From a virus (taxonomy: Duplodnaviria; Heunggongvirae; Uroviricota; Caudoviricetes), in the IMG/VR virus record IMGVR_UViG_2872185964_000004: a stretch of DNA of 17,968 bases. One strand, written 5' to 3'. The position numbers were made by a program, and so were the translations under genes. Position 1 is the stretch's first letter. Every line of letters begins with the position of its first letter. Shown here piece by piece: positions 1 through 15,225 of the stretch. Below the pieces are notes generated by a model. The model saw only the letters and a list, made by a program, of their open reading frames with translations. It was not told the origin of the DNA and searched no databases.

Positions 1-1461
1 ATGAAAAAATTACTGCGTCTTTTTTTCCCGCTCTCGCTGCGGGTACGTTTTCTGTTGGCAACGGCTGCGGTAGTACTGGTGCTTTCGCTTGCCTACGGAA
101 TGGTCGCGCTGATCGGTTATAGCGTCAGTTTCGATAAAACTACGTTTCGGCTGTTACGTGGCGAGAGCAATCTGTTCTATACCCTTGCGAAGTGGGAAAA
201 CAATAAGTTGCATGTCGAGTTACCCGAAAATATCGACAAGCAAAGCCCCACCATGACGCTAATTTATGATGAGAACGGGCAGCTTTTATGGGCGCAACGT
301 GACGTGCCCTGGCTGATGAAGATGATCCAGCCTGACTGGCTGAAATCGAATGGTTTTCATGAAATTGAAGCGGATGTTAACGATACCAGCCTCTTGCTGA
401 GTGGAGATCATTCGATACAGCAACAGTTGCAGGAAGTGCGGGAAGATGATGACGACGCGGAGATGACCCACTCGGTGGCAGTAAACGTCTACCCGGCAAC
501 ATCGCGGATGCCAAAATTAACCATTGTGGTGGTGGATACCATTCCGGTGGAGCTAAAAAGTTCCTATATGGTCTGGAGCTGGTTTATCTATGTGCTCTCA
601 GCCAATCTGCTGTTAGTGATCCCGCTGCTGTGGGTCGCCGCCTGGTGGAGTTTACGCCCCATCGAAGCCCTGGCAAAAGAAGTCCGCGAACTGGAAGAAC
701 ATAACCGCGAATTGCTCAATCCAGCCACAACGCGAGAACTGACCAGTCTGGTACGAAACCTGAACCGATTGTTAAAAAGTGAACGCGAACGTTACGACAA
801 ATACCGTACGACGCTCACCGACCTGACCCATAGTCTGAAAACGCCACTGGCGGTGCTGCAAAGTACGCTGCGTTCTCTGCGTAGTGAAAAGATGAGCGTC
901 AGTGATGCTGAGCCGGTAATGCTGGAGCAAATCAGCCGCATTTCACAGCAAATTGGCTACTACCTGCATCGTGCCAGTATGCGCGGCGGGACATTGCTCA
1001 GCCGCGAGCTGCATCCGGTCGCCCCACTGCTGGACAATCTCACCTCAGCGCTGAACAAAGTGTATCAACGCAAAGGGGTCAATATCTCTCTCGATATTTC
1101 GCCAGAGATCAGCTTTGTCGGTGAGCAGAACGATTTTGTCGAGGTGATGGGCAACGTGCTGGATAATGCCTGTAAATATTGCCTCGAGTTTGTCGAAATT
1201 TCTGCAAGGCAAACCGACGAGCATCTCTATATTGTGGTCGAGGATGATGGCCCCGGTATTCCATTAAGCAAGCGAGAGGTCATTTTCGACCGTGGTCAAC
1301 GGGTTGATACTTTACGCCCTGGGCAAGGTGTAGGGCTGGCGGTAGCCCGCGAAATCACCGAGCAATATGAGGGTAAAATCGTCGCCGGAGAGAGCATGCT
1401 GGGCGGTGCGCGGATGGAGGTGATTTTTGGTCGCCAGCATTCTGCGCCGAAAGATGAATAA
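1..1461 (+). CDS. phoQ: Two-component sensor histidine kinase PhoQ
   Basis: 486-aa ORF with N-terminal TM segment, periplasmic acidic patch (EDDDDAEM), second TM, H-box ([10 protein letters not shown]) and HATPase motifs ([21 protein letters not shown]). Matches E. coli PhoQ as I recall it; ATG start at position 1. Confidence 0.97.
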
Positions 1462-7060: not shown

Positions 7061-7519
7061 TCACACCCCCGCTAAATCCGCCCACCAGCGGCGATTATCC
7101 GCACGCGGCATTTTTTCGGGGTGCTGCTCATACAGGGAACGGCGGGCCAGCTCCACGTCGGAATCAGGGTAAGCCGGTACGGATGTAACGGTAATTTCGT
7201 ACAGTTCCGCCACCAGCACGGTGCGCACGCATGGATCTGTTGTGGTATCCCATACATCCTTACGGGAACGAAAGCCAAAGCTCATGCCGGATATATCACC
7301 TCGTTTAACCAGTTCGATAACGTCGCGCCCTGTACTGGTATCCGGTGGGGTCAGTTCAAAGCGTAACCCTGTTTCGTCCTCTTCCAGTTTCAGCGTGCCG
7401 GAACGGGTGCGCCCCAGTAACATGCTGTGGTCATGCTCATACAGGCCGCGAACGTCATTACCCGCCGCAAGCCATTCAGTAAACGCCCCCCGCTGGAATT
7501 TTTCGTAAAACTCACCCAT
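7061..7519 (-). CDS. Prohead protease (HK97 family, S78 peptidase); N-terminus apparently displaced into another frame
   Basis: 152-aa ORF with protease core motifs (GEFYEKFQRGAF, HDHSMLLGRT, GTLKLEEDETGL, SFGF). The expected N-terminus (MKSMEIRSSEITTSGAGTLTGYIVCWDKLSELL) is encoded in a different frame at 7520-7617. Confidence 0.85.
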   Translation of the reverse strand: MGEFYEKFQRGAFTEWLAAGNDVRGLYEHDHSMLLGRTRSGTLKLEEDETGLRFELTPPDTSTGRDVIELVKRGDISGMSFGFRSRKDVWDTTTDPCVRTVLVAELYEITVTSVPAYPDSDVELARRSLYEQHPEKMPRADNRRWWADLAGV

Positions 7520-9401: not shown

Positions 9402-9812
9402 TCAGAACGGAATATCATCACCGTAAGGGTCATCGCCTCCCGCTGGTGGCTGATTACCCTGTGTGCCTGTGGTCTTGCGTCGGCTCCCACCAGGACGTGC
9501 CGCACGGGCACTGATTACGCTGTCTGCAATAACCTGATAACCCTGCCGCGTTTCCCCGTTCTGTCCGGTCCACTGGCTGACCTGCATCGTGCCGGATACG
9601 CTGGCAACGTCGCCTTTTTGATGTTTAGCCAGGAAGTCGGCCTGCTTACCAAATGCGATGACCGATAGCCATAACGTCGCCTGTCCATCCTGTGCCTGGC
9701 TGCATGGCAGCGATACCGCCATACGCGCCAGCGTCATCGGTGTACCCTTGCTGGTCTGTTTTACCTGCGGGTCGTCCACCAGCCGCCCGTAAGCTGCAAT
9801 TTGTGCTGTCAT
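9402..9812 (-). CDS. ssb: Single-stranded DNA-binding protein
   Basis: 136 aa; OB-fold-like N-terminus, Gly/Pro/Gln-rich linker and the diagnostic acidic C-terminal tail ...DDPYGDDIPF; ATG at 9812 with GAGGTGG Shine-Dalgarno. Confidence 0.85.
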   Translation of the reverse strand: MTAQIAAYGRLVDDPQVKQTSKGTPMTLARMAVSLPCSQAQDGQATLWLSVIAFGKQADFLAKHQKGDVASVSGTMQVSQWTGQNGETRQGYQVIADSVISARAARPGGSRRKTTGTQGNQPPAGGDDPYGDDIPF

Positions 9813-9821
9813 ATTGCCACC

Positions 9822-10112
9822 TCAGTGAAGCGATCCGGCGTTGTTCTTTTTCATCTCTTCCATCATTTTTTCAGTGAGCATTACGCACTGAAAACCCATG
9901 TTTTTGATGTCTACGGGTTTCATGCCTTTGTCAGTGGATATCACAGGCAGAATATCCTGATACACATCGCGGTCAGGGTAACTAAGCACACAAAGCGCCC
10001 ATGATGCCACGGGTGAGGATCCTTCGTCTGTTTCAACCCACCAGCCTGGTGTAGCTGCGCTTATTTGCTGAATCGTGATCCGTCCGTTGTGCTTGTAAAG
10101 TTTTTTCACCAA
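9822..10112 (-). CDS. Hypothetical protein (~96 aa)
   Basis: ORF with a non-ATG (TTG/GTG) start near 10109-10112; no motifs recognised. A separate 31-codon ATG ORF overlaps the upstream stop in another frame. Confidence 0.4.
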   Translation of the reverse strand: MVKKLYKHNGRITIQQISAATPGWWVETDEGSSPVASWALCVLSYPDRDVYQDILPVISTDKGMKPVDIKNMGFQCVMLTEKMMEEMKKNNAGSLH

Positions 10113-10124
10113 ATTTTGGTTCGC

Positions 10125-10376
10125 TCATGATTCCAACTCTCCGGTTTTAACGTTGATTGTTGTTACCTGTTCCGCTTCGGCAATCTCCCGTTCTGTCAGC
10201 GTGGCAAAGTTTGCCGCCGCCGTGGTCATGAATGCGCTTATCAGGTCGGGATGTTCCTTCGCGTATCCTTCCCGCGTGTGGCGGTCTATCATTCTGATTG
10301 CCACCTTTAAGGTGTGCTCAGTCATGTCTAACGCTTTATATTTTGGCTCTGTTCTGTCTCTGCGTTTTTGGGTCAT
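10125..10376 (-). CDS. Hypothetical protein (83 aa)
   Basis: ATG at 10376 with GAGAGG Shine-Dalgarno; the track ORF begins upstream inside the iteron region. Confidence 0.45.
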   Translation of the reverse strand: MTQKRRDRTEPKYKALDMTEHTLKVAIRMIDRHTREGYAKEHPDLISAFMTTAAANFATLTEREIAEAEQVTTINVKTGELES

Positions 10377-10388
10377 TTCTCGCAACCT

Positions 10389-10576
10389 CTCACTTTTTCG
10401 CCTCACTTTTTCAAGCGTCTCACTTCGTCGCAGTTGGGATTTTCGGTTTTTCTATGTGTGTGTTTCATAAGTATTTTTTTACCCCTCACTTTTGAGGATG
10501 TATACAGGTCGAAAAGTGAGGGGAGCGGGCTAATTTTGGCCCTCTTTCTACCCCCTCGCTTTTGCTCCTCACTTTT
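10389..10576. repeat. Iteron cluster (CTCACTTTT) with an embedded 12-bp inverted repeat; putative replication origin
   Basis: CTCACTTTT or variants at 10389-10397, 10402-10410, 10419-10426, 10485-10493, 10555-10563, 10568-10576. Inverted pair CCCCTCACTTTT (10482-10493) / AAAAGTGAGGGG (10512-10523) with an 18-bp spacer. Sits immediately 3' of the RepA-like ATPase gene. Confidence 0.5.
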
Positions 10577-11558
10577 ATAGCGGCGCTACATCATCCCCAT
10601 CGATACGAATAACCCCATCTTTTTCCAGCTTGTACAGCCAGCGCCGGAAGTTTTTCATTTCATACCCCAGCTTTTTCATGTCATCACGTAACAGCTGGAT
10701 CGTGCACTTGTCGCCGTTCTGTGTGCGTGAACGGATGCACCCCCATAGCGCGGTATGGTTTTCCGTCTTGTTCCCTGCCTCCTCTATGCGCTCCAGTTCA
10801 ACAGGAGGGCGCGGATCATCCACCACCACCAGCGACGTGATTAATTCACCGTCAGCGTCGGTAAAAAGCTCCACCACGCGTAAGTCATATGCGGCTTCTT
10901 TGAGTTCCTCCGCGTCCTTCATTTTGGTGCATGAGATAACCAGCGCTTCGCTTCCTGCGTCCTCCCTGCGTATCCGGTATTCAGCATCCAGCGAAGCACG
11001 AAATGCACTGGAGCCGCGCGCGCCTTTCGTCTCATCCTTGCCGGAATGGTGAACCACCAGCACCGTGGCCCCTGTGCGTCGTTTCAGTTCGTCACAACCA
11101 CGGATAAACGCCCCCATATCACGGGAATCATTTTCATCATTCCCACCAAAGCAACGCGCCAGCGTATCCAGAATAATCATGCGTACAGGTTTACCCGTTT
11201 CCCGCTCCACCTGACGGGCAGCGATAACCATTTCATCAACATCAAGCGGGGCAGCCGGAAAGATGGGGCGGTTTACCAGATACAGATTTTTCACCTGCTC
11301 ATCGTGCACAACCTCCCAGGCTTTTACACGACGCGGAACACCTATACCGCCTTCACCAACCACATAGAGAACCGCACCATGTGCAACCCTGCGGCCTCCC
11401 CACTGGCGACCAGTGGCAACATGGCACGCCCACGATCCGGCAAGGAATGATTTATAGGACCCGCTAGCCCCGTATATGCTGCATAGCGATACCGCCGGAA
11501 TAATCCCCTTAACCACGTAATCCAGTTGCGTGTCGTATCCGGTAGATCCAACGCTCAT
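10575..11558 (-). CDS. AAA_25 / RepA-like RecA-fold ATPase (replication helicase-like protein)
   Basis: P-loop GASGSYKS, Walker B IILDTL, and the HHSGK...RGSSAF motif characteristic of RepA/DnaB-like ATPases. Start placed at ATG 11558, which overlaps the upstream stop (ATGA at 11555-11558); an in-frame ATG at 11660 is the alternative. Confidence 0.75.
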   Translation of the reverse strand: MSVGSTGYDTQLDYVVKGIIPAVSLCSIYGASGSYKSFLAGSWACHVATGRQWGGRRVAHGAVLYVVGEGGIGVPRRVKAWEVVHDEQVKNLYLVNRPIFPAAPLDVDEMVIAARQVERETGKPVRMIILDTLARCFGGNDENDSRDMGAFIRGCDELKRRTGATVLVVHHSGKDETKGARGSSAFRASLDAEYRIRREDAGSEALVISCTKMKDAEELKEAAYDLRVVELFTDADGELITSLVVVDDPRPPVELERIEEAGNKTENHTALWGCIRSRTQNGDKCTIQLLRDDMKKLGYEMKNFRRWLYKLEKDGVIRIDGDDVAPL

Positions 11559-11974
11559 CGGTAGCGTGGTTTTTCGCTGGTGGTTTTTTTCTTCCACCGG
11601 CTCTTTCCCGCGCACCCGTTCCAGGTATTCGCGCCAGTTCTCCCGCATATGGCTGTGCATCCCTTCGGGTAATAATTCGCATCAGTTACACCCGCCGCCG
11701 CCAGCTTGTGCGCAATGGCATTAATATTTGATGGCCTGATGTGGCCTGCCTTGTACAGCCGGACACAATAGCGCCCCTCGTCGATGATTCTCAGGTCTGC
11801 CAGTTCATCCAGTTGATCATCAGCCAGCACAACGGGAGGCACATTATCGCCAGCCAGTCGCCCGTCCTGTTCCTGCCACTGTTTCGCATGTGCCCAGGCA
11901 TCACTACCCGCAAAAATAATGACTTCGGTCATCTTGTCGTAAGGCTGTTTTTTTAAGTTCGGTGCGCTTTTCAT
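11555..11974 (-). CDS. Hypothetical protein (139 aa), co-translated with the ATPase
   Basis: ATG at 11974 overlapping the upstream stop (ATGA at 11971-11974); no confident motif. Confidence 0.5.
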   Translation of the reverse strand: MKSAPNLKKQPYDKMTEVIIFAGSDAWAHAKQWQEQDGRLAGDNVPPVVLADDQLDELADLRIIDEGRYCVRLYKAGHIRPSNINAIAHKLAAAGVTDANYYPKGCTAICGRTGANTWNGCAGKSRWKKKTTSEKPRYR

Positions 11975-12270
11975 TTCTTGCCCCTGAATCCGTTAATCAT
12001 GGTTTTCAGCTTCTGGATGTTTGCCCGTGCCCTGGCGTTGCTGGTGGGCACGTTATGCGGCGCGGTCTGTACCAGAGAAAAATCACGCCGGAACTGATAA
12101 ACAGACATCACGCAATCATATTCGTAACCTTCACGGCGGTAGGTTACACGCCGTTCTTCCACGCCCTTAATCATTACCGTGCCGCCGTACTGGTCGCGGT
12201 AAATATCACCGCGCGTAAATTTAGGGTGAGTGTTGCCACTGGCAGTTAAGCCAGAATATTTAAGTTTCAT
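11971..12270 (-). CDS. Hypothetical protein (99 aa)
   Basis: ATG at 12270 with GGAG upstream; basic protein. Confidence 0.5.
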   Translation of the reverse strand: MKLKYSGLTASGNTHPKFTRGDIYRDQYGGTVMIKGVEERRVTYRREGYEYDCVMSVYQFRRDFSLVQTAPHNVPTSNARARANIQKLKTMINGFRGKK

Positions 12271-12275
12271 TATTT

Positions 12276-12509
12276 TTATTCTCCGGTGTGCTGTTCTTTA
12301 TATCTGTCGTGCAATAGATCTATTTCTTGCAGTTCCATTATTACAGGCTCAAGAAGCGTTATTAATGCCGTGGCAATTCTTGATTTTTGTTCGTCGCGTT
12401 CATTGTCGCCAAGTGTTTCAAGCCATATGCGCAATATTTCCAGCATGTTTTCACTGTGAGAAAGTGCAAGAAATGCGCGGTCTATTGTTTCGTGGTAAAT
12501 ATCACGCAT
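12276..12509 (-). CDS. Hypothetical protein (77 aa), first gene of the replication operon
   Basis: ATG at 12509 with GAGGA Shine-Dalgarno; the IS1 composite is inserted 76 bp upstream of this start codon. Confidence 0.5.
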   Translation of the reverse strand: MRDIYHETIDRAFLALSHSENMLEILRIWLETLGDNERDEQKSRIATALITLLEPVIMELQEIDLLHDRYKEQHTGE

Positions 12510-12576
12510 GGCTTACATCCTCAGGAAATTTTCTTCTGTAACGCGCCTCTGCCACATATTCCGCATAATCGGCGGC

Positions 12577-12585
12577 GATATTCAG
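12577..12585. repeat. 9-bp target-site duplication GATATTCAG (left copy)
   Basis: Identical 9-mer directly abuts the outer IS1 ends at 12577-12585 and 14098-14106. Confidence 0.85.
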
Positions 12586-13329
12586 GGTGATGCTGCCAAC
12601 TTACTGATTTAGTGTATGATGGTGTTTTTGAGGTGCTCCAGTGGCTTCTGTTTCTATCAGCTGTCCCTCCTGTTCAGCTACTGACGGGGTGGTGCGTAAC
12701 GGCAAAAGCACTGCCGGACATCAGCGCTATCTCTGCTCTCACTGCCGTAAAACATGGCAACTGCAGTTCACTTACACCGCTTCTCAACCCGGTACGCACC
12801 AGAAAATTATTGATATGGCCATGAATGGCGTTGGATGCCGGGCAACTGCACGCATTATGGGCGTTAGCCTCAACACGATTTTACGTCACTTAAAAAACTC
12901 AGGCCGCAGTCGGTAACCTCGCGCATACAGCCGGGCAGTGACGTCATCGTCTGCGCGGAAATGGACGAACAGTGGGGATACGTCGGGGCTAAATCGCGCC
13001 AGCGCTGGCTGTTTTACGCGTATGACAGGCTCCGGAAGACGGTTGTTGCGCACGTATTCGGTGAACGCACTATGGCGACGCTGGGGCGTCTTATGAGCTT
13101 GCTGTCACCCTTTGACGTGGTGATATGGATGACGGATGGCTGGCCACTGTATGAATCCCGCCTGAAGGGAAAGCTGCACGTAATCAGCAAGCGATATACG
13201 CAGCGAATTGAGCGGCATAACCTGAATCTGAGGCAGCACCTGGCACGGCTGGGACGGAAGTCGCTGTCGTTCTCAAAATCGGTGGAGCTGCATGACAAAG
13301 TCATCGGGCATTATCTGAACATAAAACAC
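12586..13329 (+). mobile_element. IS1 copy 1 (744 bp, lacks the right terminal inverted repeat)
   Basis: Begins with the IS1 left inverted repeat GGTGATGCTGCCAACTTACTGAT; contains insA, the A6C frameshift motif (12892-12898) and the insB frame; ends at ...AACATAAAACAC and is directly abutted by copy 2. Confidence 0.93.
12641..12916 (+). CDS. insA: IS1 InsA (copy 1)
   Basis: 91-aa product [22 protein letters not shown]...[11 protein letters not shown] start. Confidence 0.93.
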
Positions 13330-13356
13330 GGTAATGCTGCCAACTTACTGATTTAG
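12868..13356 (+). CDS. insB: IS1 insB reading frame (copy 1), expressed as the InsAB' transposase by -1 frameshift
   Basis: insB frame with transposase motifs. An in-frame TAG at 12865-12867 lies upstream of the frameshift site, so the fusion is unaffected. The C-terminus is altered (...[12 protein letters not shown]) because the frame runs into copy 2. Confidence 0.8.
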
Positions 13357-13384
13357 TGTATGATGGTGATTTTAAGGTGCTTGC

Positions 13385-13660
13385 GTGGCTTCCATTTCCA
13401 TCAGATGTCCTTCCTGCTCCGCTACTGAAGGCGTGGTGCGTAACGGCAAAAGCACTGCCGGACATCAGCGCTATCTCTGCTCTCATTGCCGTAAAACATG
13501 GCAACTACAGTTCACTTACACCGCCTCTCAGCCCGGTACGCACCAGAAAATCATTGATATGGCCATGAATGGCGTCGGATGTCGCGCCAGTGCACGCATT
13601 ATGGGCGTTGGCCTCAACACGGTTTTACGTCACTTAAAAAACTCAGGCCGCAGTCGGTAA
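13385..13660 (+). CDS. insA: IS1 InsA (copy 2)
   Basis: 91-aa product [22 protein letters not shown]...; A6C frameshift motif at 13636-13642. Confidence 0.93.
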
Positions 13661-14082
13661 CCTCGCGCATACAACCGGGCAGTGATGTGATTGTCTGCGC
13701 TGAAATGGACGAACAGTGGGGCTACGTCGGTGCTAAATCACGTCAGCGCTGGCTGTTTTACGCGTATGACAGGATACGGAGGAGGGTTGTGGCGCACGTC
13801 TTCGGTGAACGCACTCTGGCCACACTGGAGCGTCTTCTGAGCCTGCTGTCGGCCTTTGAGGTCGTGGTATGGATGACGGATGGCTGGCCGCTGTATGAAT
13901 CACGCCTGAAGGGAAAGCTGCACGTTATCAGCAAGCGTTACACTCAGCGCATTGAGCGACATAATCTGAATCTGAGACAACATCTGGCAAGGCTGGGACG
14001 GAAGTCACTGTCGTTCTCAAAATCGGTGGAGCTGCATGACAAGGTCATCGGGCATTATCTGAACATAAAACACTATCAGTAA
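13579..14082 (+). CDS. insB: IS1 InsB (copy 2)
   Basis: 167-aa ORF ending ...HYLNIKHYQ, the canonical InsB C-terminus. Confidence 0.9.
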
Positions 14083-14097
14083 GTTGGAGTCATTACC

Positions 14098-14106
14098 GAT
14101 ATTCAG
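14098..14106. repeat. 9-bp target-site duplication GATATTCAG (right copy)
   Basis: Matches 12577-12585 exactly. Confidence 0.85.
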
Positions 14107-14247
14107 TACATCAAGCCCGTTGATTTATATTCTCTCGTGGAAAGTAAGAAAAAAGCCGCTCTAATAAGTTCTGGCATTGACGAAAGCGCACCAGCCGCAT
14201 CATCAGGAACGCCGGAAAATTCCTGTTTCAGGGAATTAAAACGATCA

Positions 14248-14613
14248 TCACGCATGTTTACCCCCCTGAATGACCTGATAACCGCAACTGGTCAGCAACT
14301 CGATAAATTCCGGCAGTGTGCCGAAACAGCAATCATCACGCAGCCGTTCGCAGGATACCTCGACGCCGTTTTCGTAGTGACTCACCATACATCCGGTAAA
14401 ATGCAGATCATCATCGTGATGGCTCGTTGACGGCTTAATCAGTCGCGCACGTTCCGCCAGTTCTAGCAATGCTTCAACGCTTCCGGCAATTGCACCATCC
14501 GGCAGGTGATAATTACGCACTATGCGCCCGTTCTCCACATTGACCAGCAACTGCCCGGTAAATTTCTCGTCAAACTGAATGCTGTTAAGGTCAGAAATTG
14601 ACAGGTTATGCAT
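14248..14613 (-). CDS. Hypothetical protein C (121 aa), third gene of a small three-gene operon
   Basis: ATG at 14613 with AGGAGG Shine-Dalgarno, 2 nt after the stop of gene B. Weak, unverified resemblance to CbeA/YfjZ-type antitoxins (LVNVENGRIVRNYHLPDGA; ...SCGYQV). Confidence 0.6.
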   Translation of the reverse strand: MHNLSISDLNSIQFDEKFTGQLLVNVENGRIVRNYHLPDGAIAGSVEALLELAERARLIKPSTSHHDDDLHFTGCMVSHYENGVEVSCERLRDDCCFGTLPEFIELLTSCGYQVIQGGKHA

Positions 14614-14830
14614 GGTGCACCTCCTGCACATCAGCCATGATAATTTTTCCGGCCTTATCCAGTGCCTGATCGGCTTTTAGCTGCACAAATGCTAAATAAT
14701 GGAAGATGCATTCTGATTCTCTGGCTGCGTGTTTATGCGCCCTGTCAGCAATAACAGAAATATCAATCAGCGCATGCATTAGCGTTATGATGGCTTCGGC
14801 GGCTGCGTCCGGACGGGTGTTATTGCACAT
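14606..14830 (-). CDS. Hypothetical protein B (74 aa)
   Basis: ATG at 14830 with AGGAGG Shine-Dalgarno; overlaps the gene A 3' end by 11 nt. Confidence 0.6.
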   Translation of the reverse strand: MCNNTRPDAAAEAIITLMHALIDISVIADRAHKHAARESECIFHYLAFVQLKADQALDKAGKIIMADVQEVHHA

Positions 14831-15026
14831 GGCACACCTCCTGACGAATACGGGCAGCGAATACCATCACGCAGCCAGCCGGGGATTGCTGGCGTGCTTC
14901 CTGTTCGCTGGTGGCCTCGATGGTAATCACGCGCGGTTGTGCCGTGCTCAGGGCGATAAAACGCCAGATGTATTTATTCAGGTCGTGCGAGTCCCGCCCT
15001 TGCGGGTGTGTGGTATGATTTCTCAT
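14820..15026 (-). CDS. Hypothetical protein A (68 aa), first gene of the leftward operon
   Basis: ATG at 15026 with GAGG Shine-Dalgarno. This is the only credible part of the 333-aa track ORF 14820-15821, whose remainder crosses the operator region and is antisense to the RHH gene. Confidence 0.55.
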   Translation of the reverse strand: MRNHTTHPQGRDSHDLNKYIWRFIALSTAQPRVITIEATSEQEARQQSPAGCVMVFAARIRQEVCHVQ

Positions 15027-15123
15027 AGCTGCCTCGATACTTTCGCTATCGTTGGTGGTTAGAAGCCCGGTTAGTGTTAGCGCACTGCCGGGTTTCGTCG
15101 TTTCTGCACCTTGCGCCAACAAG

Positions 15124-15175
15124 GTGTTGAACACCAATTTAAACCCAGGTGTTAAACACGTCAAGTGTTGAACAC
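15124..15175. promoter_or_regulatory. Three palindromic operator-like sites GTGTT(G/A)AACAC in a divergent promoter region
   Basis: GTGTTGAACAC 15124-15134, GTGTTAAACAC 15149-15159, GTGTTGAACAC 15165-15175. A candidate sigma70 promoter for the RHH gene (-35 TTGAAC 15168-15173, 17-bp spacer, -10 CATACT 15191-15196) overlaps the third site. Confidence 0.6.
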
Positions 15176-15225
15176 TTATTTTTTTTCCTGCATACTGCAT
15201 TTGTTTTTTATGAGGGGTACACCAC

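Follow-up and report, generated by a model that had tools for sequence, protein, structure and literature searches.

A 1,512-bp compound IS1 transposon without cargo, very likely moved as one unit from the corA-rarD locus into a capsid-forming phage satellite

The window analyzed here (the whole 17,968-bp stretch of DNA, which lies at ~0.96 Mb of CP026872.1) contains a 1,512-bp block of two fused IS1 copies, which is very likely a cargo-less compound IS1 transposon that moved as a whole from the corA-rarD locus into a phage satellite island. In the model that we favor, the left half would be an IS1 deprived of its right end by an iso-IS1 that became joined to it at position 744, and the right half would be that same iso-IS1, so that the only inverted pair usable for the entire block would be formed by its outer ends, IRL of copy 1 and IRR of copy 2. 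An IS1 transposase, presumably supplied by copy 2 or by other genomic IS1 copies, would have synapsed these two ends. The block would then have been copied from the older corA-rarD locus (a direction that we infer from the comparison of the two loci) into the island with a 9-bp duplication, landing in the antisense orientation inside a 77-aa ORF in the middle of an early operon driven by alpA.

Structure of the IS1 block

As the initial annotation had proposed, two head-to-tail IS1 copies are directly abutted, and both direct reading and alignment confirmed the coordinates of this arrangement, a truncated IS1 joined to a complete iso-IS1 (Table 1). The final bases of copy 1 (...AACATAAAACAC) correspond to IS1 position 744; the last 24 bp of IS1 and hence the IRR are missing, which makes this copy a truncated, non-autonomous IS1. 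Over its entire length (744/744) it matches the first 744 bp of a complete IS1 located elsewhere in CP026872.1, a genome in which a solo IS1 is surrounded by an 8-bp target-site duplication. Copy 2, also described as complete in the initial annotation, has the size expected for the IS1 family (768 bp) and both terminal repeats. At the internal junction, base 13329 is followed directly by 13330 (...ATAAAACAC joined to GGTAATGC...). A gap-free alignment of the two copies revealed 68 differences in 744 positions (90.9% identity, or 9.1% divergence), in good agreement with the earlier estimate of about 10% and with the argument drawn from it that the pair is not a recent in-situ duplication. A single 9-bp duplication encloses the whole 1,512-bp unit, as had been claimed; the respective 9-mer (GATATTCAG) occurs three times within the window versus 0.09 occurrences expected by chance.

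Table 1. Coordinates of the IS1 block, the interrupted ORF and selected island features within the window
Feature	Position	Strand	Remark
Target-site duplication, left copy, 9 bp (GATATTCAG)	12577-12585	.	present singly in IS-free relatives
Target-site duplication, right copy, 9 bp (GATATTCAG)	14098-14106	.	
Copy 1, IS1 positions 1-744, Shigella-type IS1	12586-13329	+	744 bp
Copy 1 IRL1	12586-12608	+	
Copy 1 insA	12641-12916	+	
Copy 1 A6C slip site	12892-12898	+	
Copy 1 stop of the InsAB' frame	13354-13356	+	inside copy 2
Copy 1 read-through InsB protein	12961-13356		131 aa
Copy 2, complete iso-IS1	13330-14097	+	768 bp
Copy 2 IRL2	13330-13352	+	
Copy 2 insA	13385-13660	+	
Copy 2 A6C site	13636-13642	+	
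Copy 2 insB	13579-14082	+	
Copy 2 IRR2	14075-14097	+	
Interrupted 77-aa ORF, 5' part (MRDDRFNSLKQEF...)	14107-14255	-	codons 1 to ~51
Interrupted 77-aa ORF, 3' part (...NIAADYAEYVAEARYRRKFPEDVSHA, stop)	12502-12585	-	
phoQ	1-1461		left end of window
Integrase	16739-17968	-	
alpA	16191-16379	-	upstream of insert in operon
Promoter-like site upstream of alpA operon	16446-16419		
Icd-like ORF	14820-15026	-	upstream of insert in operon
74-aa ORF	14606-14830	-	upstream of insert in operon
121-aa ORF	14248-14613	-	upstream of insert in operon
77-aa ORF (distinct from the interrupted one)	12276-12509	-	downstream of insert in operon
DUF4222 gene	11971-12270	-	downstream of insert in operon
RepA-family helicase gene	10575-11974	-	downstream of insert; split by 1-nt C-run deletion at 11670

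The 91-aa InsA, the slip site (TTAAAAAAC) and an open InsAB' frame are kept by both copies alike. The InsAB' product has the canonical length of 232 aa in copy 2 and 238 aa in copy 1, where the sequence following NIKH reads GNAANLLI instead of the terminal YQ, the new C-terminus being encoded in IRL2; this bears out the earlier observation that the last two InsB codons of copy 1 are replaced by read-through into copy 2. Both InsAB' products contain the Zn-ribbon, HTH and DDE_Tnp_IS1 domains (Pfam PF03811, PF12759 and PF03400; E-values from 1e-19 to 1e-77). The 68 nucleotide differences between the two copies translate into just 15 amino acid differences, suggesting that each half derives from a lineage in which function was maintained by selection.

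Insertion site

When position 12585 is joined to 14107, the island aligns without a break with the IS-free islands of E. coli FORC_042 (96.5%) and Ecol_316 (93%), and the target CTGAATATC is single-copy and uninterrupted in six relatives. This comparison with IS-free homologues, which the initial annotation had suggested as a check, confirmed the empty site. In the IS-free relatives the target falls within a conserved 77-aa ORF (MRDDRF...GLDVLNIAADYAEYVAEARYRRKFPEDVSHA) that overlaps both the preceding and the following gene (ATGCGTGA overlap): its start overlaps the stop of the preceding 121-aa gene and its stop shares bases with the ATG (12509) of the gene that follows, forming one continuous operon from alpA to rep. 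The distances initially given for the insert are correct, with the ATG at 12509 lying 76 bp away and the stop at 14248 lying 150 bp away, but the placement of the insert in an intergenic region between two operons is not, as the block splits the 77-aa ORF. The apparent 150-bp gap is due to a GGGG run near 14117-14119 with one G missing, which creates a false stop at 14103-14105 (a TGA inside the right duplication) and thus truncates the ORF at this duplication. The missing G is probably an assembly error, like three others nearby (see below). Overall, the alignments classify the IS1 block as an intragenic insertion in the middle of a tightly overlapping operon.

The host island

Based on its gene content, the host element located between phoQ and roxA can be assigned to capsid-forming PICIs (cf-PICIs) of the EcCIEDL933 type; the genes were called from Pfam and tblastn matches and from the RefSeq annotation of close relatives. 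The order of genes starting from phoQ is TerL, TerS, HNH, connectors, portal, prohead protease, major capsid protein, PerC, SSB, small ORFs, RepA-family helicase, DUF4222, 77-aa ORF, IS1 block, small ORFs, Icd-like ORF, alpA and integrase, with roxA/pepT beyond. The island thus carries int, alpA and rep along with the capsid, protease, portal, connector, HNH, TerS and TerL genes and has no tail genes, which is the gene content of a cf-PICI. The island genes all lie on the minus strand and those of IS1 on the plus strand, the block being antisense to the interrupted ORF.

The same gene set and order is known for the EcCIEDL933-type cf-PICIs, in which alpA is required for induction and transfer (bioRxiv 10.1101/2022.09.08.507074). 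The order shared within this family (int, alpA, small ORFs, DUF4222, rep, ssb, perC, capsid ... terS, terL) is found here as well. Unlike its relatives, the island in the window has an IS1 block in the early operon, and its rep is of the RepA/AAA_25 helicase type, whereas many members of the family have a D5 primase type. A region of ~1 kb between phoQ and terL (1462-2490) contains only short ORFs without Pfam matches. Another region, between alpA and the Icd-like ORF (15000-16140), shows alignment gaps relative to the closest E. coli islands; a 143-aa ORF within it (15707-16138), which matches Bro-N weakly and has no counterpart in any other assembly, may represent a frameshift fragment or a variable accessory region.

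Predicted effect on the island

Strong polarity in either orientation is a classical property of IS1 insertions. Within the block, promoter-like sites were detected only at the PIRL of the two copies (12593-12620 and 13337-13364), both of which point inward, and no consensus match was found for an outward hybrid promoter at IRL1 directed toward the downstream island genes. AlpA-dependent transcription initiated at the promoter-like site upstream of the alpA operon would be expected to stop in the block. It is plausible, by analogy with other IS1 insertions, that the DUF4222-repA-ssb-perC genes, and possibly the capsid and packaging genes, are left unexpressed through polarity. The earlier suggestion of a crippled island whose replication genes are cut off from their promoter is likewise plausible on these grounds; internal promoters downstream of the insert, e.g. 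near perC, are possible.

Other copies of the unit and movement of the whole block

A protein look-up identified the exact 131-aa read-through InsB protein in seven contigs: the source of the window, five contigs with the unit at corA-rarD and one representing a third locus (L011). One of the corA-rarD contigs (L008) is a second copy from CP026872.1 itself, at ~2.88 Mb between corA and rarD. The corA-rarD unit is identical to the island unit (1512/1512) in four assemblies, including CP026872.1, and matches it at 1511/1512 positions in the fifth. The identity of the two units extends to both extremes (GGTG... on the left; CAGTAA, ...CAGTAAGTTGGAGTCATTACC on the right). The corA-rarD unit (contigs L005-L008 and L010, positions 9594-11137) lacks a target duplication, and its IRR2 marks the point at which rarD is truncated. 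This copy is common to strains with differing neighboring IS content, while the island copy is confined to one assembly and four short-read contigs. The lack of a duplication and the presence across strains point to corA-rarD as the older copy and, judging from these sequences, the likely donor of the island copy.

Whole-block transposition through IRL1 and IRR2 predicts the combination seen here: an identical second copy, a clean duplication of 9 bp and an empty site that could be verified in relatives. The comparisons thus lend good support to the movement of the double IS1 as one unit, and the composite insertion via the outer ends that was originally proposed fits both the empty site in the relatives and the 100% identical second copy. 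The island remains the one secondary insertion with a duplication that was found. Searches with the junction of copies 1 and 2 returned no single-piece match in 5,426 complete E. coli genomes, PLSDB plasmids, GTDB representatives and JGI metagenomes, suggesting that the unit is rare and has not spread. Apparent junction matches with "80% coverage" were discarded, as they turned out to be complete IS1 pairs with 6-8-bp spacers.

Gene conversion (or a double crossover), by which a single IS1 resident in the island would have been replaced by the tandem from the corA site, could account for the identity of the two units, as IS copies within one genome do exchange sequence. The unit at L011, in which copy 1 is IS1A-like (nine substitutions) and copy 2 is nearly unchanged (three differences), may reflect such a conversion. 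At the island, this route would need a crossover within the last few bases or one free of mosaicism in sequences that are 91% identical, and we consider it improbable. Somewhat less probable still is an assembly in situ, in which IS1 inserted first (with the 9-bp duplication), the iso-IS1 then entered 24 bp inside its right end, and slippage finally collapsed the tandem 32-bp IRR repeat created in this way, so that the block never moved as a whole. The intermediate needed for this scenario does exist at L011, as IS1(1-744), copy 2 and TAAAACAC with a 24-bp IRR remnant. On the other hand, the same two IS1 variants with a base-exact junction would have to arise independently at the island when a 1512/1512-identical unit is already present at corA-rarD of the same genome, and none of the related islands examined has a lone IS1 at this position. 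An assembly artefact, in which two separate IS1 copies were collapsed or mis-joined (the initial annotation had named such an error as a possible refutation), is the least credible of all, despite several 1-nt homopolymer errors in the assembly of the window, given that no sequence at the junction could cause a mis-join, that the unit at corA-rarD is found in other independent assemblies and that a short-read contig has IRL1 at the identical position of the island.

Assembly quality

This short-read (Logan) contig (L014, from SRR7501311) can be aligned with the window along 3,337 bp, and not a single substitution separates the two. Its first 27 bp belong to IRL1 and are followed by CTGAATATC..., an independent confirmation of the left junction. 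The only differences between the two are three 1-nt homopolymer deletions present in the window only, at 11670, 10556 and 10524. The first of them splits the 466-aa RepA helicase, which is intact in L014, into 139 and 327 aa. The absence of substitutions combined with three indels relative to an Illumina-based contig suggests that these are probably long-read assembly errors rather than marks of pseudogenes. Compared to relatives, the prohead protease gene of the window is frameshifted at ~7486-7516 by a 1-nt deletion in a C or G run, probably an error of the same kind. The island is probably less decayed than it appears, and it is possible that nothing but the IS1 block has really damaged it. 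More generally, homopolymer errors in long-read assemblies are a hazard in that they make an intragenic insertion look intergenic and an island look more decayed. The junction of IRR2 with the island and the internal junction at the island come from one long-read assembly with visible homopolymer errors; a search of short reads for the IRR2/island junction via the island proteins returned only the PacBio-series assembly or unrelated islands.

Origin of the fused junction

The sequences flanking the unit at the two other loci suggest how the fusion may have formed. Immediately to the left of IRL1, the corA site carries IS1 positions 737-768 as their reverse complement, i.e. the severed 32-bp end in inverted orientation. 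A sequence composed of this reverse complement, IS1 positions 1-744 and copy 2, built from a neighboring complete IS1, matched the observed 1,544 bp exactly. As a result, the 8-bp TAAAACAC (positions 737-744) is present twice at this site in inverted orientation, a signature of intramolecular transposition giving rise to an inversion. An attack of the two left ends of an inverted IS1/iso-IS1 pair on positions 737-744 of a resident IS1 would produce exactly this arrangement. At the third locus (L011; GCA_045574765.1, 9629-11168), the same junction and copy 2 are followed by TAAAACAC and the 24-bp IRR remnant in direct orientation, a structure that reads as an ordinary nested insertion with an 8-bp duplication. 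At the frameshift motif, both copies at L011 have A5 in place of A6; if real, this change would join insA to insB in frame, but it may be a sequencing error.

Overall, a transposition into IS1 positions 737-744 is the probable origin of the junction. An IS1-mediated adjacent deletion by copy 2 was rejected, since both other loci still contain the severed 32-bp end, with an 8-bp overlap. The remnant junctions (IRR2-TAAAACAC-IRR1 and the inverted remnant joined to IRL) were found in none of the GTDB representative genomes or metagenomes. A broader hypothesis, that the inner boundary of the IS1 right end (737-744) is a preferred self-target and that hits there found a larger, mobile lineage of fused double IS1 elements, appears rather doubtful. 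If true, it would mean that self-targeting hits include intramolecular attacks by the two left ends of an inverted IS1 pair, that the inverted 8-bp repeat at corA and the direct 8-bp repeat at L011 are two outcomes of such self-targeting, and that the fused lineage carries two repressor genes and a C-terminally altered transposase.

Comparison with known elements

The head-to-tail arrangement of copies is shared with (IS)2 dimers. In these dimers and in IS circle junctions (IS21, IS30, IS911 and IS1 circles), an abutted IRR-spacer-IRL forms a reactive site. An (IS)2 dimer with a reactive IRR-IRL junction could be ruled out for the block described here, as IRR1 is missing from its internal junction.

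Pairs of complete IS1 with 6-8-bp spacers are common in E. coli. For example, a pair of complete head-to-tail copies is located near fecI in E. coli DP051 (contig L001, 1502-3045) with an 8-bp spacer, which is the target duplication of the second IS1 copy, and another one in lacY of E. coli AF14 (contig L002, 1501-3042) with a 6-bp spacer. As in the block, a GGTAATG-type and a GGTGATG-type IS1 are arranged head-to-tail, in these pairs with the GGTAATG-type copy first. In contrast to these pairs, in which both copies are complete, the incoming copy lies here 24 bp inside the resident one, to which it is fused, and IRR1 is severed. Pairs of this kind make it evident that a resident IS1 is frequently hit by another one right at its end. 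Tandem, dimeric or nested IS1 units of the kind described here were not found in the searchable literature, the older papers on iso-IS1 of Shigella dysenteriae being outside this scope. The block is an ordinary consequence of IS1 biology and not a new kind of element, and the current understanding of IS1 and PICIs is unchanged. It provides a natural example of a truncated IS regaining mobility with the end of its neighbor, and it illustrates how IS expansion in Shigella-type genomes would disable resident phage satellites.

The organization of IS1 and the precedent of a compound transposon made of it, Tn9, are described in PMC12428005. In common with Tn9-type elements, the block has two direct IS1 copies, the outermost IRL and IRR as the ends used, and one 9-bp duplication around the whole, the movement by outer ends being accompanied by an empty site in the relatives. 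Compared to them, it has no passenger DNA, its two IS1 copies are only 91% identical, and copy 1 lacks the inner right end, which leaves the left copy, unlike that of a Tn9-type element, unable to move alone.
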